Part shown: piece by piece, positions 7,746 to 61,161 of the stretch
Numbering within the stretch: the stretch's first letter is position 1
How the letters are laid out: each line of letters begins with the position of its first letter
IMG/VR virus record: IMGVR_UViG_3300030397_000226
Location: 3,330 to 67,329 of that record
Strand: one strand, 5' to 3'
Length of the DNA stretch: 64,000 bases
Source: a virus
Notes under the pieces: generated by a model
Told to the model about the DNA's origin: nothing
Databases searched by the model: none
What the model saw: the letters and a program-made list of their open reading frames with translations, nothing else
Made by a program: the position numbers and the translations under genes

Positions 7746-10700
7746 ATGGCAGCCGTAGCTCTAATCAAACTCTCACAGGGCGCCGCCGTTCCACCAGGAG
7801 GCCGCGCTCTCGTTGGCGTTCAGGCGACGAACGTTCTCATTGAGAACACGAACAACACTGACGTTGCGTCGTGGCGTATCGAGGTTCTGTACGCAGAAGA
7901 AGGACTGACGTTCGCTCCCACAGACCCCGGTACTCCCGTTCTCGTTGATGAAAACGCGGCGGACAGTACCCCGACCTCGGCAGGCAACCCGCTCAGCCCT
8001 GATGGTGTGGGCTCGTGGCGTATCCGACTCCAGGTCTGGGATGGTCCGAACTTCACAGGGAACATGGACGAAGACATTCGTGTCTTTTCGGTACCGACGC
8101 CCAACTTTGGGTTCATCCTGCCTCCGTATCAAGTCTTCCCTCTCCAGTTGTCGAACAAGCCGCACGAGCTGAACTTCGATGACCAGCCTTGGGGCTGGAC
8201 GGGTCTCGATTCCATCACTGGCGGCGTCCTCATCAATGAAGCGTTGAAGCTCATCGATGGCTCATCTCCTTCGTTGCAGAACAGCTACGTCGGAGGGAAC
8301 ACCATCACGACGGATGCTGGTAATGGTGACTTCGAGGTTCTCGGGACAGAGAACGCGACTATCGCGGTTGACGGATTCACCACACTCAATGGTGCAGCCG
8401 GAATCGGGATGACCTCCTCGGGAGGTAATATCAACCTGAACGCGACAACTGGTTTTGGTACTCTTGAAGCAGACCAAACCGCGACGTTGCAGTCCAACAG
8501 TGCGACTGCTCAAGTAGTCGGCGCGACGGGCGTCACCATTACTGTCGGTGCCGTTAACTGGGCGTGGCCCACTGTTGACGCTGCCGGAGTCCTTTCCTCC
8601 AATGGGGCAGGAGTCCTTTCCTTCGGCGCTGCCCCTGCGTCCACGCTTCAAGCGACGTACGAGGCGGGGAACACGATTGTCACGAGTGCTCCTGAAGGGG
8701 ACTTCTCCGTCACTGGCACGGAAAACGCGACGATTGCGGTCGACACGTTCCTCACGTTGAACGGCGGAACCGGCATTGGGATGACCTCCAGCGGAGGCAA
8801 CATCGATTTGAACTCGACGACCGGGTTCATGAATTACACGTCGGACCAAGCCGCATCGTTTACGTCAACGAACGGAATCGTCACCATTACGGGCGGTGGC
8901 GGGGTTCAAATCGACGCCACTACTGGCAACGCCACACTTGCGGCGGCTGCCGGGTTCACCACTGTCGCAGGCAATACCGGAGTAGGCGTTAACTCCGCGA
9001 CGGGGAACATCAACCTGACCGCTACCACTGGGTTCGGTGGGTTTGAGTCAGACCAGACTCTGACTTTGCAATCGAACAGTGCGAATGTTGTTGTCGATGC
9101 TGCCACAGTCATCAACCTCCAAGCACCTACGACTGTTGTTTCAGGTGACCTAGTTGTTCAAGGTGACAAAGTAATCTCTAACACTACGGAAGTGGTGGTC
9201 GAGGACAACTTCATCAACTTGAACCAAGGCCATACGACGAACGGCGTAGCGCGCCCAGGTGGTCTGGTAGTGAACCTGACGCCCCAGACTGCTGCTGTAG
9301 CTATCTCGGGCGGCGCGTTCACGAGTGCGACGACTGTCGAAGTTGCGGGCCTCACCATCGGTGCTGGCGACTACTTCATGATTGATGGCGCGGATGACCC
9401 GACCAACGATGGGTTGTATCAGGTCACGTCGTACGTTGACCCAGTGCTCACAATCAATGCGGCAGGTGACCCTTGGACTCAATCTGGGTTTACGACTGAC
9501 GCAAGTGTCGCGGGCACTGTCTCCCCGATGCAAATCACCGTCATTCGTGGCGGAACTGACGGTCTGTGGGAGCAAGGTGTAGGCACCTCCTCTCCGCTTA
9601 CGTTCTCCGACTTCGCGAGTGCGGCGAGTGTTACTCTGACTGGCGCGTACCAGGGCGGGAACACCCTGACGACTGATGCCGGAAATGGTAGTGCCATCAT
9701 CAACGGTACCGAAGGGTTCACCGTCGACATGGATGGAGCGGTCAGTATCGATGGTGCTGGCGGAACAACGCTTTCGTCTACCGACTCTGCTCTTCAGCTC
9801 CTCACTCAGGGAGGTTCACCAGGGAACATCACCATCACTGCTGGCGGTGGTAGCTCTTCTGCAACTGCGACCCTTCGAGCGGATGGCGAAGTCACTGTCG
9901 AATCCGTCAATGGTGGCGGTGCCAATCTGAACGGCTCTGATGGGGTCAGCGGCGGCAGTGGTTCTCCCGGTACCGTCCGAGGTGGTGCTTCGAGTACGAC
10001 TGGCGGCAATGGTGGAGCTGCACAGGTTCTCGGCGGGAACGTTGATGCGGGCTCCGCAAACGGCGTCGGTGGTGGCGTCAACATCACGAGCGGGTTCGGT
10101 CGAGGGAACGGCGACGGCGGGACTATCAGCATCACTGGCGGCACCACTGTTGGTGCTGGCACGGGTGAGGGTGGTCCAGTCCTCATCACTGGTGGTTCCG
10201 GTGGAACGGTCGGAGACGGTGGCGCTGTCTTCATGCAAGGCGGTGGAACAAGCACTGCGTTTGACGCTGGTGATGCGACCGTACGCGGCGGCTCCGGTGG
10301 TGTCGGCGGTACCGTCAATATCGAGGGCGGTCAGTCCACCAACAACAACGGCGGACAGGTCAACATCGAGGGTGGCCAAACTCCCGCAGGTGCGAACGGC
10401 TTCGTAGGTGGTTCGGTCAACATCATTGGTGGTTTCTCACAAGGAACTAACGCCCAGGCTCGTGGCGGTCACGTCTTCATCGACGGTGGTCCTGCGGCGG
10501 CGGGTAACCAAGATGGCGGTTCGGTCTTCGTCACCTACGGTGTCCCCTTCGGAACTGGTGATGACGGCTTCTTCCGTGTCCGTCACTCGGACAATACCAT
10601 CGCTGCGGAGTTCACCACGTCTACGGACTACGATGCTGCTTCAGTTGGCGAGGTACTCGCGAAGGGCGCTACGGGTCTTGAGTACATCAGTCCCACAGAC

Positions 10701-30533: not shown

Positions 30534-31506
30534 GGACTATCTGCGGGAAGCGGGAGCGCGTAGGGTTCGTCTGTCAGGCGATAACTACGTCTCCACCTGC
30601 CCGTTCCACAAGGACTCGAAGCCGAGCTTCGCGATGAACAAGAACAACGGCATGTTCGTCTGCTACTCCGCTCACTGCGGCGTTCAGGGGAATCTCTACC
30701 TGTTCTTAGTGAATGCACTCGATTACACCCCAGACAAGGCCAAGAAGGTTGTAGAGAACTTCGGTCTTTTTGAGTCGATTCAAAAGTACGAGGGAGGGTT
30801 CGCTACTCTGCCAGACTACGACGACCGACATCAATCTGGGGCGAAACCTGACGAAGCGAGCATTACGGAAGGGCAGCTCGGTCTCTACCAGTTCTGCCCG
30901 AAGTACATGACCAAGCGTGGGTTTAAAAAGAAGACCCTGAGGCGCTGGGGCGTCGGCTACGACTTCAGCACAAGTCGAGTCACTATCCCGGTGCGAGACA
31001 GGGACTGGAACCTCGTTGGAATCTCGAAGCGCGCGACTAAGGATTGGCAGGAGCCCAAGTATCTCCATCTCGGTTTCTCGAAAGGGAAACACCTGTACGG
31101 GGAGAACATGCGAGACGGTCACGATATAGCCATCGTGATGGAGGGTCAGCTGGACGTTCACTCGTTCAACCAGAATGACCTCGACAGCCCGTGGCTTCCG
31201 GTTTCCACGATGGGGACCAGGGTCACGAACCGTCAGATTAAGATGATGCGTAAATTCAAGACTGTCGTTTTGGCATTCGACAATTTCCGAATTGACGCTG
31301 ATGGGTTAGCGACGACCAAGAAGGTGGGGGATGCTCTCTTACCACACGTCGGAGCGAACTTGTTCGTGTTTGACTTTCAAACAACTAACGTGAAAGACTA
31401 CGGCGATTTACTAAATCAAGAAGTTGACTACGGCCGCATGATTCTGCCGTATGATTCCTGGCGCCTAGAATCGGACCAATGGTCCAACAATGAAAGGAGT
31501 GCGTGA
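30520..31506 (+). CDS. dnaG: DNA primase (CHC2 zinc finger + TOPRIM)
   Basis: CPFHKDSKPSF...CYSAHCG; RVTIPVRD; IVMEGQLD; VVLAFDN...DADG. Confidence 0.9.
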   Translation: MTPIEDYLREAGARRVRLSGDNYVSTCPFHKDSKPSFAMNKNNGMFVCYSAHCGVQGNLYLFLVNALDYTPDKAKKVVENFGLFESIQKYEGGFATLPDYDDRHQSGAKPDEASITEGQLGLYQFCPKYMTKRGFKKKTLRRWGVGYDFSTSRVTIPVRDRDWNLVGISKRATKDWQEPKYLHLGFSKGKHLYGENMRDGHDIAIVMEGQLDVHSFNQNDLDSPWLPVSTMGTRVTNRQIKMMRKFKTVVLAFDNFRIDADGLATTKKVGDALLPHVGANLFVFDFQTTNVKDYGDLLNQEVDYGRMILPYDSWRLESDQWSNNERSA

Positions 31507-32678
31507 TGCTGAAGGGTATGCGCAAGGTGAAGAAGGTCGCTAAGCGACTAGAAGATGAGCGAGGAGACTGGGGCGCGTACGTTCCCTTCTTCAAGCTAGA
31601 CGACGGCGAATCAGCCATCGTTCGTTTCAACGGTAGTGAGGACGAACCTCACATCTTTGAGTCACACAGCATTCGACGAGGCAACAAGTTCAGCGGCGTC
31701 AACTGCGCGAAGGACACACCCGGTCACGATGGATGCGTAGGCTGTTGGTCGAACTCCAATGGAGACAAGGGCGTTGGACGCCCAGCTTCGAAGGGCGCAT
31801 TCAACCTCATCGACCATCGGTGGTACCACAAACTACTTGACCGAGAGAAGAGTGACGGAGAGAACAAGAGGTATAAGTACATCCTCTGTTCCGATGACGC
31901 TCGATGTAAGTACTGCCGCAAAAAGAAGAAGCGCGAACACGGCGGACAAAAGCGCGTCACTTTCGCACTTCAATGGGCTCAACTCCTCGCGGCCACAGAT
32001 GAGAAGTTGTCCAAGAAGTGCAAGTCGTGTGGCGTCGGTCGCGTCAAGGCTGTCGGGTACGAAGACGAAGATGGCGAACCTGTCGACCCTCCCAGCGATG
32101 ACGAGGAGTTGGAAGAAGCTATCGAGAGTGGTGAAATCTTCGAGGTTCTTGAGTGCAACAAGTGCGAGGAACCGGAGCGTTGTACGTTGAATGACGCTTT
32201 GCTTGAAGTCACTCGCGTAGGGTCAGGCACCAACACGACCTACAAGTTCGACATCGAAGAGATTGTCGAGATGGAGGAGTGGGAAACAGAGTGCGAGCCT
32301 GGTGACCTGGAGGCTCAAAACAAGCCCCTCAGCGCGGAGAAGCAGGCAGGCGTCATTGGCGTACAGAATCCGTTCGGCAACTCAGCAGATGACGAAATCG
32401 ACGAATGGGATGACGAGGACGAAGAGGACGAAGAGGAGAAGCCTCGTAGGGGTCGAGGCAGACGTAGCAGGCGCCGTGATGACGATGAGGATGACGACGA
32501 AGATGAAGATGATGACGTCGCAGAACCTTTTGACGACGAAGACGACGATGAGGATGACGACCCTCCCCCACGCCGTCGCAGCAAGAAAAAGGTTGTGAAA
32601 AAGAAGGTCCGAAAGAAGGTCGCGAAGAAGTCTTCCAAAAAGAAGACGAAGAAAAGGTTACTACGCAGGCGTCGTTGA
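31503..32678 (+). CDS. Single-stranded DNA-binding protein (gp32-like, Zn-binding) with acidic and basic tails
   Basis: FFKLDDGESAIVRF, Cys clusters, EVTRVGSGTNTTY.F; poly-D/E then poly-K/R tail; lies between primase and polymerase. Confidence 0.65.
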   Translation: MMLKGMRKVKKVAKRLEDERGDWGAYVPFFKLDDGESAIVRFNGSEDEPHIFESHSIRRGNKFSGVNCAKDTPGHDGCVGCWSNSNGDKGVGRPASKGAFNLIDHRWYHKLLDREKSDGENKRYKYILCSDDARCKYCRKKKKREHGGQKRVTFALQWAQLLAATDEKLSKKCKSCGVGRVKAVGYEDEDGEPVDPPSDDEELEEAIESGEIFEVLECNKCEEPERCTLNDALLEVTRVGSGTNTTYKFDIEEIVEMEEWETECEPGDLEAQNKPLSAEKQAGVIGVQNPFGNSADDEIDEWDDEDEEDEEEKPRRGRGRRSRRRDDDEDDDEDEDDDVAEPFDDEDDDEDDDPPPRRRSKKKVVKKKVRKKVAKKSSKKKTKKRLLRRRR

Positions 32679-35551: not shown

Positions 35552-36637
35552 ATGGTCAAACTAAGAGTCAATAAAAAGGCGTCTAAGAAGACGTCCAAAA
35601 AGAAAGCAACTAAAAAGCCCACTGTCGACAAGAAAAAGCTCGCCGCTCTTGAGGCGGTCGTCAAGAAAGTCAACAAGTCCCTCGGCAAAGACGGAGCAGT
35701 CTTTCTTGGAAGCCAACACAAAACCTTTACCCGGATGGGGACAGGGATTGTTGCTCTGGATTTCGTCATTGGCGGTGGCCTCCCTCGTGGTCAGATGACG
35801 ATGTTTTCCGGGGAGGACTCCACAGCTAAGACGATGTGCAGCATCCTTTCGGCAGCCAAGGTTCAACGTGAGGGAGGTACTGTTGTGTGGGTCGCAGGCG
35901 AAGGGTTTGACCGAGAATGGGCTGAGTCACACGGAGTCGACCTCGATTCCATCTTCGTCATTCAGGCAGATACCGGAGATGTGGCACTTGAGTCGGCCAT
36001 CTCACTGATGGAGGAGGCTCCTGTGGACTTGCTTGTCATCGACTCTGTGCAGTCGTTGGGGACGACTCGTGAGATGGAGGATGGCGTAGACCAAGAGTCC
36101 TACGGCAACGCTGGTGCCCCTCAGATGTGGGGACGAATCATGAGGCGATGTTACGCGGCGATGAACAAGATGGAGCAGGGACAGGAGACCGCCATCATAG
36201 CTATCTCTCAGGTGCGTAGCGCGGTAGGGAAACGCGGATTCAGGGGGATGACCCCAGACCCGGAGTCTTCAGGTATCAAGGCTCTCAAACATTGGAAAGC
36301 CGTCGAGGTGTTTTTCAAAAAGGGAGACTACGATTATGAGGGTGACAAAGAGAAGCGTAATATTACGCGCAGGCAATTCAAATTGAAGAACCTGAAGAAC
36401 AAGACAGCTACTCCGCATCGTGAGTCTAGTTTCGACTTCTACCCTCGGACGCGGAAGGTGGATAATCGAATCACGGCTGTTCGCCTTGCCAAAGCGTTCG
36501 GTTTTGTTGAGAACAAGGGCGCGTGGTACAAGGGGTATGGCGTCCGAGCACAAGGTGAGAGAGCCTTTGCAGACAAACTCGACCCTTCCGTTCTGCGGAA
36601 GATGGTTCAGGAAGTAAACCGGCAAGCAGCCGAGTGA
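35552..36637 (+). CDS. recA: RecA/UvsX-like recombinase
   Basis: TGIVALDFVIGGGLPRG, GEDSTAKT, LLVIDSV, IIAISQVR, GIKALKH, KNLKNK, KGAWY. Confidence 0.9.
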   Translation: MVKLRVNKKASKKTSKKKATKKPTVDKKKLAALEAVVKKVNKSLGKDGAVFLGSQHKTFTRMGTGIVALDFVIGGGLPRGQMTMFSGEDSTAKTMCSILSAAKVQREGGTVVWVAGEGFDREWAESHGVDLDSIFVIQADTGDVALESAISLMEEAPVDLLVIDSVQSLGTTREMEDGVDQESYGNAGAPQMWGRIMRRCYAAMNKMEQGQETAIIAISQVRSAVGKRGFRGMTPDPESSGIKALKHWKAVEVFFKKGDYDYEGDKEKRNITRRQFKLKNLKNKTATPHRESSFDFYPRTRKVDNRITAVRLAKAFGFVENKGAWYKGYGVRAQGERAFADKLDPSVLRKMVQEVNRQAAE

Positions 36638-39369: not shown

Positions 39370-39713
39370 CAGCACACGCAGGTGAGCCTGTTTTCGACGA
39401 CCCTCATCTCTTCATGTTCGCGATTGCGGGAAAGACTCGCGATGAGGCTCGCAAAGCTCTCAAGCGCGTGGTTCAGGAGAAGGGGTATCACGAGAGTCAG
39501 TGGGACGAGATTCCCCCTAATGAAAAGGTTCTTTACGACAGAGCGTTTGTCGCGACCCGAGATATGGTTCGTGGCAACGCCTGGAGTTTCAAGGTGGATG
39601 AGAAAGAGCCCTACTCTATCGACGTCATCAATCAGATGAAGCAGACGATTCGCCGAATCATCTTCGTTGTCCGGTTGAAGGAAGCGAAGGGGCGTCACGA
39701 TGTCCATAGTTGA
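39366..39713 (+). CDS. Hypothetical protein
   Basis: GTGA-coupled ORF, 115 aa. Confidence 0.5.
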   Translation: MTAHAGEPVFDDPHLFMFAIAGKTRDEARKALKRVVQEKGYHESQWDEIPPNEKVLYDRAFVATRDMVRGNAWSFKVDEKEPYSIDVINQMKQTIRRIIFVVRLKEAKGRHDVHS

Positions 39714-40506
39714 GAAGGTGCGCAAAAAGAAAGTACTCAAAAAGCGCATCAAGAAGAAGGTCGTGAAGAAGACGCGGCCAGTGGTGAGGGAGAATCCGAA
39801 GGTGATTGCTCCTCCCCCGAGCGTCATCGGAATCATCGACGACGTAATCGAGGCAGACAAGGAAGTCGTTCGTTTCTTTCGGCCGTCCATGTTTCATGGG
39901 TGTCCGAGGGCGAACGTCTTTCACCACGTCATGGCTCCTCGCCACCCACAGCGAATCACCAACCGTCTACGTCGAATCCTCGACAACGGGAGCGCGGTTC
40001 ACGAGTGGGTGCAGGAGCACTACCTCTCTCGCCACCTCAAGTACTGGTTCATCAAAGAACCGAAGGTGCTCGCCAAAATCAACGGAGCCTATGTGCGCGG
40101 CTCCTGCGACGGTGTGTTCATCCGACGGAGCGACGGGTACCGATTCGGTATCGAGTTCAAAACGATTGGCCACACCTACTTCGAGCGACTCACGAAGCCG
40201 AAGCCCGAACACGTTCTTCAGGCGCGCATCTACATGCGACTCCAGAAGCTCGACTACATCGTCATCGTCTATTGGGACAAAGACAAGCAGTTCTTAAAGG
40301 AGTTCCCAGTCAAGGCTGACGATGCGGAATGGAAGAAAATCACCCAGCGAGTGAAGAAATTCAAAGGGTACGCGGACAAGTACGACGCTGCGAAGAACGA
40401 CCGCGATAGGGCCAAGGCTTTGCCTGTGTACAACCGTAAGGTTTGCGACCCCGACTTCTGTACATACACTGACTACTGCAAGAAGATGGGGGCTCCGCTC
40501 CCGTAA
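39700..40506 (+). CDS. Cas4/RecB-like PD-(D/E)XK exonuclease with probable Fe-S cysteines
   Basis: PSMFHGCPR, GSCDG...IEFKT, QARIYM, C-terminal CDPDFCTYTDYC (1+3 Cys layout). Confidence 0.85.
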   Translation: MSIVEKVRKKKVLKKRIKKKVVKKTRPVVRENPKVIAPPPSVIGIIDDVIEADKEVVRFFRPSMFHGCPRANVFHHVMAPRHPQRITNRLRRILDNGSAVHEWVQEHYLSRHLKYWFIKEPKVLAKINGAYVRGSCDGVFIRRSDGYRFGIEFKTIGHTYFERLTKPKPEHVLQARIYMRLQKLDYIVIVYWDKDKQFLKEFPVKADDAEWKKITQRVKKFKGYADKYDAAKNDRDRAKALPVYNRKVCDPDFCTYTDYCKKMGAPLP

Positions 40507-44796: not shown

Positions 44797-45663
44797 ATGA
44801 GAACACTACGAGTAGGAATGCAAGGGGCCGACGTTGAGGCCCTTCAACACTTTGTGAACAACTACCTCGACCCCGACATCGGGGCTGACGGAGTGTTCGG
44901 GAGTAAAGAGACCAAGCCCGCCGTCATGAAGGTGCAGGCTATTGCGATGGAGAAAGGTCTCGACATTGGGGAAGACAAACCCGATGGCGTAGTTGGGAAG
45001 ATGACGACCGCTGCCTTCATGCAGATGGGGTGGGAGCCTGTCGGGTACACTCAGATTGAGGAGAAGGTCGACGAGAATTACGCGAAGCCTGACTACAAGG
45101 CTCTCCGTCAACACGAGCGCATCGCGAAGTTCGGTACTCCCGGCTCCATCGGCGAAGATGGTAAGTTCGTTCTGGATGAGAAGTTCCGCAAGGAGATTAC
45201 TTCAATTGATATTGCTGATTTTGTCACTCTCCCGAAGGATTTTGAGGGCTCAACCAAGCTGTTCCTGCACAAAAAGGTAAAGGGACAATGGAAGGCGATT
45301 CTCTCAGAGATTGAGGCACAAGGTCTGGGAAAAGATTTGCTGACCTGTGGAGGAAGTTGGGCGCCGCGATTCGTGCGCGGCTCACGGACGACTTTTTCGA
45401 GCCACGCATTCGGGACAGCTATCGACTTCAACGTCCCTTGGAACTACATGCGACAAACGCCCGCCCGAAAAGGAAAGAAGGGGTACCTCGGCAACATCGT
45501 CGCGATTTGCAAGCACTACAAAGTGTACAGCGGCGCGTGGTTCCGACGTCTCGACGGCATGCACCTAGAGAGTACGCATACCGACGAGGAGCTTGAGAAG
45601 ATGGGAGTCTTCAAAGGTACCAAGGAGCGACTGAAGAAGCTGGGCGAAGAGAAGGCGTCCTGA
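44797..45663 (+). CDS. Endolysin: peptidoglycan-binding domain + M15 peptidase
   Basis: LRVGMQGADVEALQ..DGVFG..DGVVGKMT; SSHAFGTAIDFN and DGMHLE zinc motifs. Confidence 0.9.
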   Translation: MRTLRVGMQGADVEALQHFVNNYLDPDIGADGVFGSKETKPAVMKVQAIAMEKGLDIGEDKPDGVVGKMTTAAFMQMGWEPVGYTQIEEKVDENYAKPDYKALRQHERIAKFGTPGSIGEDGKFVLDEKFRKEITSIDIADFVTLPKDFEGSTKLFLHKKVKGQWKAILSEIEAQGLGKDLLTCGGSWAPRFVRGSRTTFSSHAFGTAIDFNVPWNYMRQTPARKGKKGYLGNIVAICKHYKVYSGAWFRRLDGMHLESTHTDEELEKMGVFKGTKERLKKLGEEKAS

Positions 45664-46067
45664 TGGAGAAGTTGCGACTGAACATGAGAGCGACCGTTGA
45701 GTGCAAGTTCTCGGCGGCGCACCAGTTGGAAGGGCTGGGAGCGGACCACCCGTGTACGAGTCTTCACGGACACAACTACAAGGTGTGGATTACGTTCGAA
45801 GGGGAGCCTGACGAACTTGGGCTCATCATCGACTTCCGCTTGGTCAAGGACGTCATCAAGAAGATGTACGACCACAAGAACCTCAACGAGGTCATGCCTG
45901 GCCGAAACACCACAGCAGAGAATCTGTCGTTTGACGTGTTGCGCGTAATGAACGATGTGATTTTCAAGATGCAGGAAGAAGAGCGCGTCCGCGTCGTGCT
46001 GGTCGAGGTTCAGGAGACAGAGACGTCGAAGGTGCGTCTGGAGGTTGTACCTTATGAAGACGCTTAA
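45663..46067 (+). CDS. queD: 6-carboxy-5,6,7,8-tetrahydropterin synthase
   Basis: FSAAHQL....CTSLHGHNY, IIDF..VK, DHKNLN, TTAENL, VQETETS. Confidence 0.95.
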   Translation: MEKLRLNMRATVECKFSAAHQLEGLGADHPCTSLHGHNYKVWITFEGEPDELGLIIDFRLVKDVIKKMYDHKNLNEVMPGRNTTAENLSFDVLRVMNDVIFKMQEEERVRVVLVEVQETETSKVRLEVVPYEDA

Positions 46068-46734
46068 ATTGGTCGGTTTCCAGAAGCCCATCTTCTCCAC
46101 GGTTCAGGGTGAAGGACACCTGTCGGGTACTCCTTCGGTGTTCGTGCGCCTCCACGGTTGCGACTTCTCGTGCGAATGGTGTGATACCAAAGAGTCCTGG
46201 CGCGAGGGAAGCGACTACGACAATACGGACGTTGACGAAGTGATTGAGCTCATCAAGCTCAGTGGAATGGAGCATGTCGTCATCACTGGAGGGAATCCCA
46301 TCCTTCAGGGAGACTCGCTCCTCGACGTCGTACAGGAGCTGAAGGAGCACCACATCACCATCGAGACTCAGGCGTCCGTCTACCATGACATCGCCCGAGA
46401 CGCTGACCTCCTCAGCCTCTCCCCGAAACTCCACGACTGGCGTGAAGACGTCATTCAGGAGTTCCTGGATAACGCTCAAAGGGAGACGCAGTTCAAGGTG
46501 GTGGTGCCTTCGATGGGGGACCTACCCTCAGCACTTCGGAAGCTGGAGCGGGTGAACGAAATGAATCCGTACAAAACGGTTCACTATTTCATCCAACCGG
46601 AGTACAACGGCGGTCGTGCGCTGGTGAGGAGCATCATCGACTCGATTATCGAAAGTCGGTTCCTCGGTAGCATCAACCTTCCGAACCTGCGGGTCCTTCC
46701 TCAACTTCACAAAACGAGCCTCCACGTTGTCTAA
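46054..46734 (+). CDS. queE: 7-carboxy-7-deazaguanine synthase (radical SAM)
   Basis: FSTVQGEG..SGTPSVFVRLHGCDFSCEWCDT, VVITGGNP, LSLSPK, RVLPQLHK. Confidence 0.95.
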   Translation: MKTLKLVGFQKPIFSTVQGEGHLSGTPSVFVRLHGCDFSCEWCDTKESWREGSDYDNTDVDEVIELIKLSGMEHVVITGGNPILQGDSLLDVVQELKEHHITIETQASVYHDIARDADLLSLSPKLHDWREDVIQEFLDNAQRETQFKVVVPSMGDLPSALRKLERVNEMNPYKTVHYFIQPEYNGGRALVRSIIDSIIESRFLGSINLPNLRVLPQLHKTSLHVV

Positions 46735-47308
46735 GCCTGACCCCCTCGTCCGCGCTGTCCGAATGATGTTGGACGAAGCGGTCACCGTTAACGAGCCCGA
46801 GCTGCTTGACTTGAAGAACACGCCTCGGCGTGTGGCGAAGATGTACCGGAAGGAGTTGCTCTCATCGTACGAGTTCAACTCCGAGGTCGCTCTCAGAGAA
46901 AAATTCACCACGTTCCCCAGTCAGGGGAATCACGAGATGGTGACGGAATCGAACATCCAATTCTACTCACTATGTGCTCACCACATGTTGCCTTTCTTCG
47001 GCAAAGCTCACGTTGGGTACATTCCACACAACGAGATTGTTGGGCTGTCGAAGATTCCTCGTGTGGTCGAGTACTTCTCTCGTGCGTTACAGACTCAAGA
47101 GAGGTTCACGAGCCAGGTGGCCGACTTCCTCAACACCGAGCTTGACGCGGCGGGAGTGATTGTGATTACTGAAGCGCGTCACTTGTGTATGGAGATGAGG
47201 GGCATCGAAAAGCCTGAAACTGTGACTCGTGTTTCTGCGATTCGAGGGCGTGCTAGAGACCCCGTTGTGCGTGACGAATTTTATCGGTTGATTTCTTTGG
47301 GAAAATGA
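46727..47308 (+). CDS. folE: GTP cyclohydrolase I
   Basis: NTPRRVAKMY, FYSLCAHHMLPFFGKAHVGYIP, GLSKIPR, QTQER, ARHLCMEMRG. Confidence 0.95.
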   Translation: MSKPDPLVRAVRMMLDEAVTVNEPELLDLKNTPRRVAKMYRKELLSSYEFNSEVALREKFTTFPSQGNHEMVTESNIQFYSLCAHHMLPFFGKAHVGYIPHNEIVGLSKIPRVVEYFSRALQTQERFTSQVADFLNTELDAAGVIVITEARHLCMEMRGIEKPETVTRVSAIRGRARDPVVRDEFYRLISLGK

Positions 47309-47313
47309 CCTGA

Positions 47314-47342
47314 TTGACATTGACACGTCACAGTGACACAAT
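47314..47342 (+). promoter_or_regulatory. Sigma70-like promoter
   Basis: TTGACA-N17-CACAAT; spacer contains TGACAC-GTCA dyad. Confidence 0.65.
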
Positions 47343-47355
47343 GAACGAACTTACT

Positions 47356-47410
47356 GAATCCCGATTGACTGGTTTTGTTGTCCCTTTCCAGGCTTTCGGG
47401 ATTCGTTTTT
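47356..47410 (+). ncRNA. Candidate small RNA / leader hairpin with anti-RBS-like loop (element B)
   Basis: GAATCCCGA/TCGGGATTC and CTGG/CCAG stems; loop TTTTGTTGTCCCTTT; followed by GTTTTT. Confidence 0.5.
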
Positions 47411-47441: not shown

Positions 47442-48077
47442 ATGGCTAAGAAGAAGGCAACAAAGAAAACGACAAAGAAGGCTCCGAAGAAGAAGGCGCC
47501 TGTAAAGAAGAAGACGACCAAAAAAGCAACGAAGAAGACTGCGAAGAAGAAAACCACCAAAAAGAAGGCAACGAAGAAGACGGCCAAGAAAACCGTTGCC
47601 AAGAAGGCGTCCAAGAAAAAGACTTCTAAGAAGAAGGTTGCCAAGAAGACTTCAAAGAAAAAGGCAACTAAGAAGAAGCGCAAGCTCAAGGCTGGCGTCG
47701 TGAAGCAAACCAAGTCGGTTGAGTACCTGCGTGACGATGAGGGCAATATGTTCCGTCGCCGTCGTTCGCGTGCCAAGGAGTTGGATGAAGGTCCGACCGG
47801 CAAGGCGAAGCAGCTCATCACCGGACTCGATAAGCTGGAGATGGAAATCGAAGACCTCAAAGACAAGCAGCAGGAGAAATTCAAGCAGCTCGTCGAGGTC
47901 GAAGGGAACACGTTCCTCCATCCCGAGCGTGGACCCATGTCCATCATGCAGCGTAACGATGCGTACTACTGGCGTGTGAAACCGACTGGACGTTCCGCTG
48001 GTCAGGGCAGGCCCGTAGTGAACGAGTCCACTTTGGAAACAGTAGACGCGGAAGACGAAGAGGCAGGAGACTTCTGA
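47442..48077 (+). CDS. Histone H1-like Lys/Ala/Thr-rich protein with C-terminal globular part
   Basis: About 85 aa of KKATKK/KKTSKK repeats. Confidence 0.75.
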   Translation: MAKKKATKKTTKKAPKKKAPVKKKTTKKATKKTAKKKTTKKKATKKTAKKTVAKKASKKKTSKKKVAKKTSKKKATKKKRKLKAGVVKQTKSVEYLRDDEGNMFRRRRSRAKELDEGPTGKAKQLITGLDKLEMEIEDLKDKQQEKFKQLVEVEGNTFLHPERGPMSIMQRNDAYYWRVKPTGRSAGQGRPVVNESTLETVDAEDEEAGDF

Positions 48078-48081
48078 GCCA

Positions 48082-48495
48082 GTGGGACAGAAGTTCGCGG
48101 TTGCGGTAGAACCCAACGCCCGTCCGAAACTCAAGAATGGTCGCATGGTGCGCAGCAGGACAATCGTCTACTGTCACACTGACCAGGCAGATTGGGCTTC
48201 GGGCGGGGAACCTGCCCACTGCAACGTCTTCGACTTCAAACCATCGTTCCGCACCTGCAAGCGGTGCAAGCACAACCACGGCACTATGGAGATGGGGTGT
48301 AGTTCCGTTCCCCAGAAGGGGATGTGCAACAAGGATGCGAAACGGGACAAGTACGGCGTCGTCATCAGGAAGGGCAATCCTGACTTAGTTCATGACGCAC
48401 GACACGAGGACTGTCGGAAGTGTTACCAACGTCACATCTGTCTGTGGCACAAATTGAACGCAGTCTCTAAGGTAAGATTGCGAATTATCCCCTGA
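48082..48495 (+). CDS. Cys/His-rich putative metal-binding protein
   Basis: CKRCKH, CRKCYQRHIC and further Cys residues. Confidence 0.55.
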   Translation: MGQKFAVAVEPNARPKLKNGRMVRSRTIVYCHTDQADWASGGEPAHCNVFDFKPSFRTCKRCKHNHGTMEMGCSSVPQKGMCNKDAKRDKYGVVIRKGNPDLVHDARHEDCRKCYQRHICLWHKLNAVSKVRLRIIP

Positions 48496-48525
48496 AAGAA
48501 GTGAATCCACTCACTTTCATAGGGG

Positions 48526-48555
48526 TTGACACCGAATCACCCCATCGACTAGGAT
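48526..48555 (+). promoter_or_regulatory. Sigma70-like promoter
   Basis: TTGACA-N18-TAGGAT. Confidence 0.5.
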
Positions 48556-48586
48556 GGAGTGTCTTTCAAACGAAAGGGAACAACCT

Positions 48587-48871
48587 ATGCGGGTCTGGCG
48601 CATCAAGCGACGGGCCTCAACCGAGTTGTCTATTGACGACAAGGTTTGGTGGCTGGCAGATAGTCTAAAGACACCGAAACAATTGAACCTAATCATTAAG
48701 CGCCAAGACGCGGGAGGAGTCTTCCTCGATGCAGTTGGCGAAATCCACGGCACCGGAGAATCCGGTCGCATTCTCATTCAACTCAAACAACCAACCGATG
48801 ATATGGAGTGCGAATTCCTGAAACTCAATTTGGAAGAACAAGGCATTCGCATAATTAAAAAGGAAGTATAA
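48587..48871 (+). CDS. Hypothetical protein
   Basis: AAAGGGAACAACCT-ATG leader. Confidence 0.5.
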   Translation: MRVWRIKRRASTELSIDDKVWWLADSLKTPKQLNLIIKRQDAGGVFLDAVGEIHGTGESGRILIQLKQPTDDMECEFLKLNLEEQGIRIIKKEV

Positions 48872-48876
48872 GTACA

Positions 48877-49806
48877 ATGGCAAACACCAAAGCTGAACTC
48901 GCAAAGAAGGGCCTCGCAGAACTGCGGAAGATTGCGAAGCGTCACAAGATTAATCCGACTGGTAAGCGTCAGGCGCAGCTGGTTCGTGAAATCATGAAGA
49001 AGCAGGCGACTGCGAAGGGTAAGGGCACTGCCGCTGACCCGGATGCAGGCAAGACTCGTCGTGCGAAGACCTCAAAGAAGACGACCAAAAAGACCACCAA
49101 GAAGGCTGCCGCAAAGAAGACGACTAAGAAGGCATCTAGCCGCTCTTCATCCTCAGCGGCGAGCGCGGCGTCCGACAAGTCAGAGGTCACGGCACTCAAG
49201 AAGAAGGTCGATGCCCTGGAGGCCAAGGTCGAGTCATTGGAGAACCAGACTCGCGGACAACTCGCTACCGCCATTGCTCAGTGCATGGACGAACTCGGTA
49301 TCGAGCGACCGAAGGAGTGGCAGGACGCGGCTTACCGAAAGATGCTGAAGAAGCGTAAGGAGGAAGAAGAGGCCGAGGAGGAGGAACTCGATGACGACGA
49401 GGAGCTGGACGACGACGAAGAAGTCGATGAAGAGGAAGGCGATGAAGAAGAAGTCGACGAGGATGCCGAGGAAGAGGACGATGAAGAGGAAGTCGATGAT
49501 GAAGACGAAGAGGTCGACATCGTAGACGAAGATGGTGACGAGGACGAAGACGAAGAGGAGCCTGACGACGAGGAGGAAGAGGGCGACGATGAGGAAGAGT
49601 CCGACGAAGAAGAGGACGAAGAAGAAGGTGATGAGGAAGAAGAAGAGGAAATCACCGAGGAAGAGCTGAACGAGATGAATCTGTCCGAGCTGAAGGACTT
49701 GGCCAAGAAGGTCGGGTTCCGAGGTGCGGGTCGGTACAAGTCAGCCAACAAACTTCGCGAAGCTCTCATCGAGGCTTTGGAAGAGGAAGACGAAGAAGAG
49801 GAGTAA
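48877..49806 (+). CDS. Polyampholyte protein with two Rho_N/HEH-like helical ends, a basic tract and a long D/E tract
   Basis: ELAKKGLAELRKIAKRHKI and ELNEMNLSELKDLAKKVG...KLREALIEAL; about 100 aa of almost pure D/E. Confidence 0.7.
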   Translation: MANTKAELAKKGLAELRKIAKRHKINPTGKRQAQLVREIMKKQATAKGKGTAADPDAGKTRRAKTSKKTTKKTTKKAAAKKTTKKASSRSSSSAASAASDKSEVTALKKKVDALEAKVESLENQTRGQLATAIAQCMDELGIERPKEWQDAAYRKMLKKRKEEEEAEEEELDDDEELDDDEEVDEEEGDEEEVDEDAEEEDDEEEVDDEDEEVDIVDEDGDEDEDEEEPDDEEEEGDDEEESDEEEDEEEGDEEEEEEITEEELNEMNLSELKDLAKKVGFRGAGRYKSANKLREALIEALEEEDEEEE

Positions 49807-49811
49807 ACAGT

Positions 49812-50294
49812 ATGGCCGTCAAAAAGAAGACGGCGGCGAAGAAAACGGGAGCTGCGAAAGCGGCTCCCTCTTCGTCGTCTAAGAAGAAGGTAACCAAGAA
49901 GAAAGTGACCAAAAAGGTCACGAAGAAAAAGGCAACCGCTAAGAAGGCGGCCAAGAAGACCACCAAGAAAAAGAAGAAGGCCAAAAAGAAGCCTTTGACC
50001 TTGGCGGACAAGCAGGCACGTCGTCTCATCGAACAAGCACCGGAACGTGACGAGGAGCATGAGCTTCCGAAACACATTTATCCGGGTGCTCGCGTCAAGG
50101 TGTTCTACGAGGGTGAGGACACCGAGGCGATTGTGGAGTTCGTCCATGAAACGAAGGACATCTTCATGCTCAAGTCCCTCAAGGACAAGAGTCACTTCGC
50201 CTGTGCGGAGCGGTACATCAAACCACTCAAGACGGCGAAGAAGAAAGTTCTGAAGAAGCGAACCAAGAAGGCTTCGAAGAAGAGCGAAGAGTGA
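49812..50294 (+). CDS. Histone H1-like protein with small SH3/KOW-like C-terminal domain
   Basis: KKVTKK repeats, then IYPGARVKVFYEG....AIVEFV. Confidence 0.7.
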   Translation: MAVKKKTAAKKTGAAKAAPSSSSKKKVTKKKVTKKVTKKKATAKKAAKKTTKKKKKAKKKPLTLADKQARRLIEQAPERDEEHELPKHIYPGARVKVFYEGEDTEAIVEFVHETKDIFMLKSLKDKSHFACAERYIKPLKTAKKKVLKKRTKKASKKSEE

Positions 50295-50301
50295 TTCGAC
50301 G

Positions 50302-50340
50302 GGCTCCGGGGATGGCGACGTCCTCGGGGCCTTCTCACTT
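50302..50340 (+). terminator. Probable terminator hairpin
   Basis: GGCTCCGGGGA/TCCTCGGGGCC stem followed by TTCTCACTT. Confidence 0.45.
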
Positions 50341-50356
50341 GTGCTAGGATGGAACG

Positions 50357-51466
50357 ATGCAGGGAACCAAAGTCTACATGGCGGGTGCGGAAGTCAGCGC
50401 ACTAGCGGAGTCGCTCCTCAACAATGGAGTGAAGCGAATCCTCTGGTCCTACTTCTACATCATGGAGATGAAGCGAGAGAGGCAGCTCGCGTCGTACATG
50501 GAGCAGAACCCTGACGTCTCGTTCTTCCTCGACTCCGGGGCGTTCACCTACTTCACCAAGTGGAAGAAGGACGCATCCAAACTTCCGCACTACGAGAAGT
50601 ACGTCGAGCGTTACTTCTCCTACATCGATGAGTATGGACATCTCTACGACCGCATCGCGGAGCCCGACCTCGACAACACCGTACCCGGTGTGACGAATAG
50701 AGACGTGTCACATTGGTTGAATGAGATGCTCCTCACTTGGCCCGACCTCCCCGTCCTTCCGGTGTGGCATGGGTGGCGCGGCCAGGACGAATGGAACACC
50801 TACCTGTTGGACGACCGAATCAAGTTCCTCGGACTCGGACGCCAAAGTGGAGACTCTGGGCTCATGCGGAAGTTGGTGGTTCAGGCGCGTCGAGTCGGGA
50901 AACCCGTACATGGGTTTGCCCAAACGAAAGTGAACACTTCGCTCAAAAAGATTCCGTTCGACAGCGTTGACTCGACCTCGTGGCTGACGGGGCAGCAGTA
51001 CGGCACCATGTACGTCTTCCAGGGGAACAAGTTCATCACCCTCGCGAATGCGAATGATGGGAAGCGACGACGCAAGCTGTACCGGAACTACTTCAAGGCC
51101 ATTGGGTGCGATTACAAGAAAATCGAGGATGATGACGTCCACGAAGTGAGGAAGGCCAACGTGCTCGCCTGGAGGATGCTGGGGGACCGTCTCGCGGAGA
51201 TTCAGAAGCGACGGGCGGAAACGGACGTCACTCACGGTCTGGAGCGTCCTGAGGGCGATTCGGGGGGCGTGGTGAGTCTCTCTCGTGGCGAATCCGGCGA
51301 AGCGTCCCAGGGCGTCCCCAGGGCGCGGGAACGGGCGGTTTCAGCATTCAGCGAGGGTGGAATACTTCAGAACTTCAGACAGCGGGGCGATGAAGTCGCA
51401 CGCATGGGGGAGCGCCCGCGAGAGCGGGAGAGAGCGCCGTCAATTAGTTCGGCCAAACAGAGGTGA
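50357..51466 (+). CDS. dpdA: DpdA-like DNA guanine transglycosylase (7-deazaguanine insertion)
   Basis: ILWSYFY, FFLDSGAFT, LPVWH, FLGLG, VHGFA, PFDSVDSTSW are the phage DpdA/TGT-fold motifs; queD/queE/folE nearby. Confidence 0.85.
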   Translation: MQGTKVYMAGAEVSALAESLLNNGVKRILWSYFYIMEMKRERQLASYMEQNPDVSFFLDSGAFTYFTKWKKDASKLPHYEKYVERYFSYIDEYGHLYDRIAEPDLDNTVPGVTNRDVSHWLNEMLLTWPDLPVLPVWHGWRGQDEWNTYLLDDRIKFLGLGRQSGDSGLMRKLVVQARRVGKPVHGFAQTKVNTSLKKIPFDSVDSTSWLTGQQYGTMYVFQGNKFITLANANDGKRRRKLYRNYFKAIGCDYKKIEDDDVHEVRKANVLAWRMLGDRLAEIQKRRAETDVTHGLERPEGDSGGVVSLSRGESGEASQGVPRARERAVSAFSEGGILQNFRQRGDEVARMGERPRERERAPSISSAKQR

Positions 51467-51469
51467 ACA

Positions 51470-51928
51470 ATGTCAATTCCAATGGGTGAAAAAGGTAGCA
51501 TCGAGGAAAGCTACCACACAGTTATCGTTCTCTTCGCGTTCATGCGGGAGTTCCTGAAACACGTCCCCCCAGAGCAGTCGCTCGCGGTGATGTCGCTGGT
51601 CGAGCGAGAGGTGCGTTCAGGGACGACACCGGATGCGGATGTGGTCGCCAAGAAACTCGTGATGCTGGTCGAGCTGGAGGCGGAATACGCGAAGATGCGG
51701 AGGGACCCCGGCCAGCAGACCGGATACGAGAAGTTCAAGCAAGAGTTCGACGGCGAGGTAGCGCGAGCGCGTGGTACCCTGACCCCCGAGATGCGGAAGG
51801 AACTCCAGGAGAAGGCGCCCGAGGCGTTGAAGGAAATCGACGCGCTCTACGCGAAGATTGGCGGAATGAACCCGGTCTTCGACAACGTGTTCGACAGCTT
51901 GACGAAGGCGAGGAAGCCCAATGGCTAA
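51470..51928 (+). CDS. Hypothetical helical protein
   Basis: 152 aa, coupled to next gene. Confidence 0.55.
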   Translation: MSIPMGEKGSIEESYHTVIVLFAFMREFLKHVPPEQSLAVMSLVEREVRSGTTPDADVVAKKLVMLVELEAEYAKMRRDPGQQTGYEKFKQEFDGEVARARGTLTPEMRKELQEKAPEALKEIDALYAKIGGMNPVFDNVFDSLTKARKPNG

Positions 51929-52856
51929 GAAGTTCAAAGTAGTTCGGAAGAAAAAGACAGTTAAGAAGAAGCTCAAACTGAAGAAGAGCACTTCGGAACC
52001 GAAAGCCGAAGAGAAGAAGGCTGAAGAGACGGCCATTGCCAAAACCGATGAAGTGACTCTGGCACAAGCGGGAGACATCGGACCCAAGGAGCGCGATACC
52101 GTCTCGATGGTGATGGAGGGTTCCGTTCATCTGCCGGTGGTGACTGCCGAGTCGACCGACCTCGCGCTGGAACACTCGAAACTGGAGAAGCTGCCGAAGT
52201 TCGCTTGTTCGACCTGCACCATCTCGTCTGAGTGTCCCGAGTTCAAGGAGGGTTACGTTTGTGCGTTCAACGACGCCTTCAGCGCGTTCGGAAATGTGCG
52301 CAGCGTAGACAACGTGATGGAGTTGATGCGGTTCGTTGTGAACAAGAACTCGACTCGAATGATGCGTGCTCTGCTTCAGGAGGAGATTGTTAGCGGTGGA
52401 CAGTTGGACCCACAGGTAACCCGTCAAACCGAGGTTGTTCTTGGTCAATTGGAACGTATTGTCAGACTCTCTTCACAAGTGAAGAAAGTTGGGGTACAAT
52501 TCTCTGGTCCTGGCGCGTTACAGACGGCGACAAATGACAGCCAGCAAGGTGGAGGGATTCTATCGAAACTCTTCGGCAGCGTTCAGGAACCAATCAAAGA
52601 TGAGGCCGATGCACCTCTCAATCTAGCATCAGATGCAACAGTTGAAGTAGAAGGGCAGTCAATCGATGTGCCTGGAGGAGACGAGCCAAATGGCGAGAAC
52701 AATCAAAATGCGACGGGCGGGGTCCAAGAAGAAGACCAAGCCCCAGGAGTCTTCGACGAAGAAGCCAACGTATCCCAGGGAGAGCGACCTCTCACCGGGA
52801 GTGGTGGAACGTCTAATGGAGGCTCTGAGGTGGTGGAGATGGGGAGTACCGCCTGA
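51921..52856 (+). CDS. Cys-cluster protein downstream of dpdA
   Basis: FACSTCTISSECPEFKEGYVCAF four-Cys cluster; basic N-terminus, acidic C-terminus. Confidence 0.6.
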   Translation: MAKKFKVVRKKKTVKKKLKLKKSTSEPKAEEKKAEETAIAKTDEVTLAQAGDIGPKERDTVSMVMEGSVHLPVVTAESTDLALEHSKLEKLPKFACSTCTISSECPEFKEGYVCAFNDAFSAFGNVRSVDNVMELMRFVVNKNSTRMMRALLQEEIVSGGQLDPQVTRQTEVVLGQLERIVRLSSQVKKVGVQFSGPGALQTATNDSQQGGGILSKLFGSVQEPIKDEADAPLNLASDATVEVEGQSIDVPGGDEPNGENNQNATGGVQEEDQAPGVFDEEANVSQGERPLTGSGGTSNGGSEVVEMGSTA

Positions 52857-60678: not shown

Positions 60679-61161
60679 ATGGCATACTACGTTTGTTTGA
60701 TGAAGAAGCCTTCGACCAAGAAGGAGAAGACCAGGATGGTGAAACATGTTGGTCCGATGTCGTTGGCTAAGGCGAAGCCGTTCCAGGATTCAGTCACGTT
60801 CGATGCGGACAAGTTCAGTCTGGTCATCAGGAAAGAAGACCACATTGGCGCGCACGAGTTCTCTGGCAGCAAGGAGACGCAAGACGACCCTGAGATGAAG
60901 CGACCTGCGGCGGTGACGATTACCAAGGGGAGAGGCAAAAAGAAGAAGGTCACTAAGGTAGCCATCCCTAAAAAGCGTGTTCAGAAGAAGCGACGACCGA
61001 AGAAGGTCGACCCAGATGAGGGGCCCCGTGGAAAGGGTGGCGCTCCTGGCGGACAGGTTGGTGACCCACCTCCCGTAGACAAGGACCCTCCTGGTCAGTC
61101 TAAGAAGGCTACCAAAAAGAAGACCACGAAAAAGGCAACCAAGAAGGCGTCGTCGAAGTAA
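60679..61161 (+). CDS. Lys-rich protein with histone-like C-terminus
   Basis: Ends KKATKKKTTKKATKKASSK. Confidence 0.6.
   Translation: MAYYVCLMKKPSTKKEKTRMVKHVGPMSLAKAKPFQDSVTFDADKFSLVIRKEDHIGAHEFSGSKETQDDPEMKRPAAVTITKGRGKKKKVTKVAIPKKRVQKKRRPKKVDPDEGPRGKGGAPGGQVGDPPPVDKDPPGQSKKATKKKTTKKATKKASSK

Follow-up and report, generated by a model that had tools for sequence, protein, structure and literature searches.

What might a group of extremely charged proteins do when its genes sit inside the DNA-modification locus of a phage? This question is raised by a 64,000-nucleotide stretch of viral DNA (hereafter the window; bases 3330-67329 of the 69.5-kb IMG/VR contig IMGVR_UViG_3300030397_000226, estimated completeness 74%), in which five plus-strand open reading frames (ORFs), gpA to gpE, are present at 47442-50294, between folE and dpdA. 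The cassette that they form is real, conserved and previously undescribed, and its function we infer from the make-up of its proteins. We tentatively favour one answer, which we regard as quite possible: that the five genes are an operon for a non-enzymatic, charge-driven DNA-organising set, in which a polycation and a DNA-anchored polyanion would be expressed together with the 7-deazaguanine machinery.

A first-pass annotation of the window, made from the sequence alone, had placed five genes bounded by a promoter and a terminator-like hairpin between folE and dpdA, and the layout of the region bears this out:

47314-47342, + strand: promoter-like site of the cassette, sigma-70-like, TTGACA-17-CACAAT, 10/12 matches, with a TG before the -10 (extended -10)
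47356-47404, + strand: leader hairpin in the promoter-gpA interval, with a large C/U-rich loop and then GUUUUU; -28.3 kcal/mol, z -1.7
47442-48077, + strand: gpA, 211 residues, with a Lys/Thr/Ala tail (1-92), a core (~118-183) and an acidic C-terminal tip
48082-48495, + strand: gpB, 137 residues, Cys-rich, GTG start, aligned with its relatives
48526-48555, + strand: second promoter-like site, sigma-70-like, within the cassette before gpC, TTGACA-18-TAGGAT, 10/12 matches
48587-48871, + strand: gpC, 94 residues, with the start codon favoured by homologues
48877-49806, + strand: gpD, 309 residues, with HeH modules, a Lys tract and an Asp/Glu tract
49812-50294, + strand: gpE, 160 residues, with two Lys tails around a small beta domain
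50289-50340, + strand: GC-rich 14-bp hairpin after gpE; -32.7 kcal/mol, z -3.1; its tail, UUCUCACUU, is a weak U run

Each of the five genes is preceded by a Shine-Dalgarno-like motif, and the gaps between them measure 4-5 nucleotides, except for one of 91 nucleotides before gpC. The hairpin at 50289-50340 is terminator-like and non-canonical in that its U run is weak; a simple terminator scan did not flag it. Judging from the protein-level conservation of their folded parts, seen in over 10 related contigs, all five genes are genuine, and the charged tracts that they encode correspond to imperfect tandem repeats in the DNA, with periods of 12-57 bases. The cassette lies far from the structural genes: tail and baseplate genes occupy the first 20 kb of the window, and from about 20 kb on nearly all genes are on the plus strand and serve replication, recombination and nucleotide metabolism, the block to which the cassette belongs. 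Since no cultured phage has a DNA polymerase I that reaches 30% identity with the one encoded here, the contig represents a deeply uncultured phage lineage, in which the cassette, by comparison with its relatives, is a conserved and separately promoted operon (the promoter being a predicted one). In searches of Pfam and PHROGs, none of the five proteins shows an enzymatic or ATPase signature, and gpA, gpB, gpC and gpE match no family.

The candidate polycation is gpA. Lys makes up 51% of its residues 1-92, Thr 17% and Ala 14%, and its core was modelled with AlphaFold 2 (predicted local distance difference test score, pLDDT, 88.8) as a 35-residue helix joined to a three-strand beta meander. No related fold was found for this model, the best Foldseek E being 1.2 and the best VIA-align Z 4.3, all on the long helix, and a PDB sequence-profile search returned nothing meaningful. 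A profile of the gpA core matched 72 representatives at E<=1e-3 among 1.84 billion proteins, by which gpA is a member of a new protein family. Nearly all members measure 91-240 residues, in which a Lys/Ala/Pro-rich tail of highly variable length precedes a core placed close to the C-terminus; among the relatives the composition of the tail is retained while its sequence and length vary. Several members have acidic C-terminal tails, and two (P0110 and P0151) carry AT-hook cores (RGRP/GRPKG); the gpA and gpE of the window lack this motif (a GRP core flanked by Lys/Arg). The acidic tip of gpA (48045-48077) ends in Phe and that of its closest relative in Leu, recalling the acidic tips of the single-stranded DNA-binding protein (SSB) type. 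Two hits obtained with the core in metagenome-assembled genomes, in a scan of species-representative genomes, were rejected as a chance motif, FLHPERGPM, in DinB-like proteins rather than relatives; in these bacterial proteins (L022 8001-8069 and L023 8001-8153) the stretch FLHPERGPM(S/T)L mimics a gpA core motif and so gives false tblastn hits.

The putative polyanion is gpD, together with gpE. The first pass had described one protein with basic and roughly 100-residue acidic tracts, and gpD indeed has a Lys tract at 62-87 and a tract at 159-267 in which 78% of the 109 residues are Asp or Glu. These are embedded in a longer architecture, in which a HeH/Rho_N module (7-47) is followed by a GKGTAADP motif, the Lys tract, a helical segment (~100-160), the Asp/Glu tract and a second HeH/SAP-like module (~264-296). 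The N-terminal module passes the Rho_N (PF07498) cut-off, in two stretches (1.2e-08; 35.2 bits against a cut-off of 24.9; relatives score 20-22 bits), and its profile matches residues 11-54 of Rho in the PDB (E 0.008). For the apparent second copy at the C-terminus, residues 264-294 match SAP (PF02037) at 2.3e-4, with 21.1 bits, below the cut-off of 23.9. In Rho such a module accompanies RNA-binding and ATPase domains; here its companions are polyampholyte linkers and a Tudor-like barrel.

The Tudor-like domain belongs to gpE, in which a Lys tail (1-71; 42% Lys, 20% Ala) and a second tail (134-160; 41% Lys) enclose the small beta domain (~85-133). In every relative the equivalents of gpD and gpE form one polypeptide of 317-442 residues, here called DE, in which HeH, a GKGTAADPKPK motif, basic and acidic tracts, a helical segment, more acidic tract, a second HeH, an acidic linker, the small beta domain and a short basic tail follow one another. 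This architecture is kept in seven homologues; the DE-like protein of the related contig L021 has Ala-Lys-Pro repeats in place of the first HeH, and that of L007 includes an AT-hook core. The gene is split into gpD and gpE in the window only, and the 70-residue Lys tail of gpE is likewise confined to it. Since the start of the gpE domain aligns with the relatives' domain (hhalign probability 86%, E 5e-6, 27 columns), gpE is on this evidence the split-off C-terminal module of an ancestral DE protein; in a word-based search, the gpE domain matched itself only. A frameshift joining gpD and gpE was judged unlikely: the gpE frame, -1 to gpD, is open upstream (49680-49815), but there is no slippery heptamer in the last gpD codons. 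A complex prediction for gpD and the gpE domain, with gpC as partner, scored 0.01 and gave no answer, and so weighs neither way.

Profiles of the DE C-terminal domain match the Tudor domains of PHF1, PHF19, MTF2 and SMN, members of the Tudor/Agenet Royal family, at E 3e-4 to 0.1 (PDB profiles), and the domain of L007 matches Agenet at E 0.004 (17.9 bits, cut-off 27). Such scores lie under the curated cut-offs; in the alignment there is one conserved Trp, which gpE lacks, and a conserved aromatic cage is not evident. We therefore refer to this domain, in DE and in gpE, as Tudor-like, without regarding the relationship as proven.

In one related contig (L008 7535-7756) the reading frame of DE has 74 additional codons at its start, with a CxxCxCC...CxxC stretch; these are either a fused extension resembling a zinc ribbon or the product of a wrongly set start. 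In four related contigs (L007 1-989, L014 1-849, L018 9590-9841 and L025 10001-10396) one end of the sequence falls within the acidic repeat of DE. This low-complexity tract seems to interrupt metagenome assembly and will conceal the cassette in surveys.

The Cys-rich protein of the first-pass annotation is gpB, in which an alignment reveals 8 conserved Cys positions; its conserved N-terminal half follows the pattern MGQxWA...VYCHT...CxxC..N.G. Only six relatives were found among 5.8 billion proteins and none in a PDB sequence-profile search, and its AlphaFold 2 model (pLDDT 44) was set aside. For gpC, which has no PDB or Pfam relative, homologues support a start at 48587, behind AAAGGGAA, rather than at 48554 as first called. 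The gene always lies immediately upstream of gpD or DE, with junctions that overlap (L012, L018) or are spaced by 5 nucleotides.

Since gpA, gpB, gpC and gpE match no Pfam or PHROG family and have no homologue in cultured phages, relatives were sought through the neighbourhoods of DpdA homologues, together with searches using the gpA core and the DE N-terminus. DpdA has 93 homologues, 34 of them at 45-65% identity, with a second group at 34-40%. In every locus the wider order is SpoVS, queD, queE, folE, cassette, dpdA, and wherever both sides are visible the cassette lies between the precursor-synthesis genes and dpdA. The gene orders, each read from left to right, are as follows:

L015 with L010: folE, A, B, C, DE, dpdA
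L012: folE, A, B, C, DE, Dam-like gene, dpdA
L008: folE, A, C-like gene, DE, two genes, dpdA
L013: folE, two small genes, A, DE, two genes, dpdA
L011: queE, A, DE, one gene, dpdA
L018 with L014 (same sample): folE, one gene, A, two genes, C, DE, several genes, dpdA
L021 (DpdA 36% identical): folE, three genes, C, DE-like gene, vWA gene, dpdA

Linkage to dpdA in relatives, which the first pass had named in advance as a test of its proposal, is accordingly found, and it extends over cassette-bearing loci in which DpdA identity falls as low as the 36% of L021. Five further contigs (L016, L017, L019, L020 and L025) give partial views of the same arrangement, with the cassette adjoining que genes in L016, L017, L019 and L025. 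Homologues of gpA occupy the same slot in L008, L011, L012, L013, L015, L016, L017, L018, L020 and L025; those of gpB are found in L012, L015, L016, L020 and L025, and those of gpC in L012, L015, L018 and L021, and possibly in L008.

A tblastn search of 50,697 cultured-phage records with the gpA core, gpB, the gpD N-terminus, the gpE domain and the Tudor segment of L008 found no homologue (gpC was not searched), and blastn matches to jumbo phages were discarded, as they cover the GAA/GAG-rich acidic tract only. IMG/VR scans with DpdA and the gpA core found nothing, and one with the DE N-terminus found one locus. The literature searched on SAP, Tudor, acidic and Lys-rich proteins of phages describes no such cassette.

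Other genes share these loci. Between folE and gpA, relatives have two small Cys-motif proteins that the window does not (L018 7385-7936 and L020 325-885; L012 5822-6232 and L025 8517-9011), one with CGGDCY(K/S)CPNPE and the other with KPAP(A/S)YN(D/H)C. Between DE and dpdA, L008 encodes a 312-residue protein (8888-9826) with an LRQLYYQLV-type motif, which we take to be reminiscent of Spo11/Topo VI-A or JetD winged-helix regions.

In the window, net charges are +42 for gpA, +35 for gpE and -61 for gpD; across the tabulated loci they range from +18 to +42 for gpA and from -27 to -64 for gpD or DE. The gpA and DE genes are neighbours in 6/7 tabulated relatives, the exception being L021, in which gpA is missing. 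To this extent the 'polyacidic partner' proposed in the first pass holds, as an adjacency of polycation and polyanion genes; the protein is not, however, a free chaperone, since it has two HeH modules and is fused, in all relatives, with the folded domain of what had been called the second 'H1-like' protein.

The term 'H1-like' itself can be retained for composition only. The Lys-rich repeats fused to small domains that suggested it are present in gpA and gpE, and the Lys/Ala/Thr/Pro-rich make-up of H1/H5 tails is shared by gpA 1-92 and gpE 1-71. There is, by contrast, no homology to an H1 or Hc1 domain: the winged-helix globular domain of H1 (PF00538) is missing, neither gpA nor gpE has a Pfam match at E<=0.1, and the gpA core is a helix with a three-strand meander. 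In eukaryotes, the C-terminal tail of H1 and prothymosin-alpha reportedly act as a disordered polycation/polyanion pair. The cassette resembles this pair, as far as genes and charges alone reveal it, in that a gene for a Lys/Ala/Thr-rich polycation adjoins one with a ~100-residue Asp/Glu tract, with net charges opposite in sign and similar in size; it differs in that its acidic protein, which is not homologous to prothymosin-alpha, carries HeH and Tudor-like domains. The nearest analogue is the trio gp124-gp126 of the Pseudomonas jumbo phage PaBG (NC_022096.1, 88996-90933), where, among replication genes, two proteins with Lys-rich tails flank one with ~100 Asp/Glu; the Asp/Phe-rich acidic C-terminal tips of the Lys-rich proteins (L024 3146-5083) resemble that of gpA. 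The similarity to PaBG is of low-complexity sequence only; its acidic protein has neither HeH nor Tudor-like modules, and the trio was not seen to be linked with a deazaguanine locus, so that the two appear to have converged on the same charge logic without homology.

Lys tracts are found in 8/81 plus-strand ORFs of the window, nearly always at a terminus, and those of the cassette proteins are by far the longest. The first pass had pointed to one further Lys-rich tail, which is present as follows:

60679-61161, + strand: protein with Lys-rich tracts (85-106 and 137-160) outside the cassette, without a Pfam family

Short terminal tracts are carried by this ORF and by those at 31503-32678, 35552-36637, 39700-40506 and 51921-52856, which together comprise RecA and a PD-(D/E)XK nuclease (both tagged at the N-terminus) and three proteins without annotation. 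In the protein at 31503 (391 residues), two acidic tracts immediately precede the Lys tail. RecA and a PD-(D/E)XK nuclease are Lys-tagged in the relative L011 as well. Lys tails thus occur genome-wide, and the long tail of gpE is unique to this phage. Both points depart from the first-pass interpretation, a linker-histone and chaperone system that might compact or shield phage DNA, which as a whole is partly supported.

Could the Lys-rich proteins instead act on the host? According to this alternative they would condense and silence the host nucleoid early in infection, and the acidic protein would keep them harmless until delivery. Chlamydial Hc1 condenses the nucleoid when expressed in E. 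coli, the tails of the cassette proteins resemble those of Hc1 and H1 in composition, and the near-consensus, host-type promoter suggests early expression. Hc1-like and H1-like genes have been reported in metagenomic jumbo phages ('moraphages'), with similar roles proposed (PMC12619734). The likeness to chlamydial Hc1 and Hc2, which are thought to condense DNA, is however limited to an H1-like, Lys-rich composition: no cassette protein matches PF07432 or PF07382 at E<=0.1, and gpA differs from these proteins and from the moraphage genes in having a conserved core of its own and an acidic partner gene. In addition, electrostatic tails would be unable to distinguish host from phage DNA, the second 'H1-like' protein is strongly net acidic in relatives, with a short basic tail only, and the same Lys tags are found on the phage's own recombination enzymes. 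We therefore consider host shut-off quite unlikely.

The setting of the cassette raises a different alternative. The flanking genes are:

45663-46067, + strand: queD, upstream flank; Pfam PTPS, 2.7e-23; PHROG among 2389, 2076, 2197
46045-46734, + strand: queE, upstream flank; Pfam Radical_SAM/Fer4_12; PHROG among 2389, 2076, 2197
46727-47308, + strand: folE, upstream flank; GTP_cyclohydroI, PF01227, 6.6e-59; PHROG among 2389, 2076, 2197
50357-51466, + strand: dpdA, downstream flank, DNA guanine transglycosylase; phrog_887, 3.8e-27

By these matches queD, queE and folE are genes for the synthesis of 7-carboxy-7-deazaguanine (CDG), and DpdA with the precursor genes FolE, QueD and QueE (Pfam, PHROGs) constitutes a phage Dpd system, none of whose known components is matched by a cassette protein. 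There is no QueC (PF06508) anywhere on the 69.5-kb contig, and the single PTPS gene keeps the CxxxHGH motif of QueD, with no DpdL-type QueD paralogue seen; gpB was considered for the missing QueC or for DpdL and rejected, as it has no PP-loop or PTPS signature. Because QueC is absent from the contig, the pathway may end at CDG, or QueC may be encoded in the missing 26% of the genome or supplied by the host. QueC-less phages are discussed in the relevant part of PMC10516641 as having a pathway that possibly stops at CDG, among them Campylobacter phage CP220 and Cellulophaga phage phiST, whose FolE/QueD/QueE/DpdA set is the one that flanks the cassette here; charged proteins of this kind are not described in that part of the article.

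The five proteins might then be helpers of 7-deazaguanine modification, which would present, open or coat duplex DNA for DpdA, or neutralise the extra negative charge of CDG-containing DNA, although the notion that such charge calls for polycations is speculation. In bacterial Dpd systems a role of this sort is supported by the DpdB ATPase. A helper function would suit the constant position of the cassette within the modification locus, which is retained as DpdA diverges, and a pathway that may stop at CDG, as in the phages treated in the portion of PMC10516641 cited above. Against it, the relevant parts of PMC6884629 and PMC10516641 report no need for such proteins in characterised DpdA phages such as 9g, CAjan, phiST and CP220, and the tblastn search described above found no homologue of its five cassette queries in cultured phages. 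Moreover, the five proteins lack an enzymatic or ATPase signature, and in relatives variable genes part the cassette from dpdA. A helper role thus seems improbable.

A decoy function in anti-defence, in which the Asp/Glu tract would mimic DNA and soak up restriction enzymes or nucleoid proteins while the HeH modules anchor it near phage DNA, is very unlikely. The length and acidity of the gpD tract would suit a decoy, and it shares its locus with an anti-restriction DNA-modification system. The DNA mimics Ocr and ArdA, however, are folded proteins with patterned charges, unlike the low-complexity gpD tract, which varies in length and sequence, and a decoy would leave the constant polycation neighbour unexplained. 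That the Lys-rich proteins are packaged counter-ions, carried into the capsid along with the DNA in the manner of internal or core proteins and neutralising its charge, would fit the extreme positive charge of gpA and gpE and is nevertheless highly improbable, since their genes belong to the replication and nucleotide-metabolism block, behind a host-type promoter and ~27 kb away from those for tail and baseplate, and the gpE equivalent is in relatives part of a net-acidic protein.

In the reading that we prefer, that of a charge-driven DNA-organising set, the Lys-rich tail of gpA, which bears AT-hooks in some relatives, would bind DNA non-specifically, and its helix and beta-meander core would provide specificity or self-association. 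As halves of one ancestral protein, gpD and gpE would anchor on DNA or on a partner through their two HeH modules and Tudor-like barrel, leaving the ~100-residue Asp/Glu tract of gpD to act as a tethered polyanion. This polyanion would compete with DNA for Lys tails, those of gpA and gpE as well as the tags on RecA, the nuclease and other DNA enzymes, keeping them soluble and exchangeable. The outcome would be a nucleoprotein phase, dynamic and driven by charge, that forms on phage DNA as it replicates and as DpdA inserts 7-deazaguanine. We count in favour of such a set its conserved placement, the Rosetta-stone fusion of gpD and gpE, the opposite charges, the DNA-binding modules, the retained tail composition, the Lys-tagged DNA enzymes, the promoter of its own, the setting among replication genes far from the structural ones and the tight gene junctions, which overlap in relatives.

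Several observations weigh against it. The charges, although of the same order of magnitude, are unbalanced; gpA is missing from L021, the most distant locus, and gpB and gpC are patchy, being found in part of the lineage only. The Lys tags could be no more than a mark of how DNA-binding proteins are built in the particular host. The Tudor-like call rests on marginal sequence scores, with gpE as the most divergent member. Finally, since the wider gene order (SpoVS ... queD-queE-folE ... dpdA) is common to every relative, and the loci compared included no member of the lineage without dpdA by which the two might be separated, linkage to dpdA has so far been inseparable from inherited synteny, which rather than function may account for it.

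A more far-reaching form of the same idea, which we think rather unlikely, is a charge-coded chromatin or condensate. Here a DNA-anchored polyanionic scaffold (HeH, poly-Asp/Glu, HeH, Tudor-like) and gpA, as a dedicated polycation, would build on phage DNA a compartment for replication and modification, the short Lys tags on RecA, the nuclease and other phage enzymes would serve as client signals for recruitment to it, and unmodified DNA would be sheltered until DpdA acts.

The comparisons define two protein families that have no Pfam or PHROG entry, that of the gpA core and that of the HeH-acidic-Tudor protein. If the preferred reading of the cassette is true, a matched pair of polycation and polyanion organises phage DNA, so that the principle of the eukaryotic linker histone and its acidic partner would be realised with unrelated parts and tied to DNA hypermodification. 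This would provide a tractable two-protein system in which to study how charge organises DNA in bacteria, would give the Lys tags seen on many phage DNA enzymes a possible role, and may point to non-enzymatic helpers of 7-deazaguanine modification.

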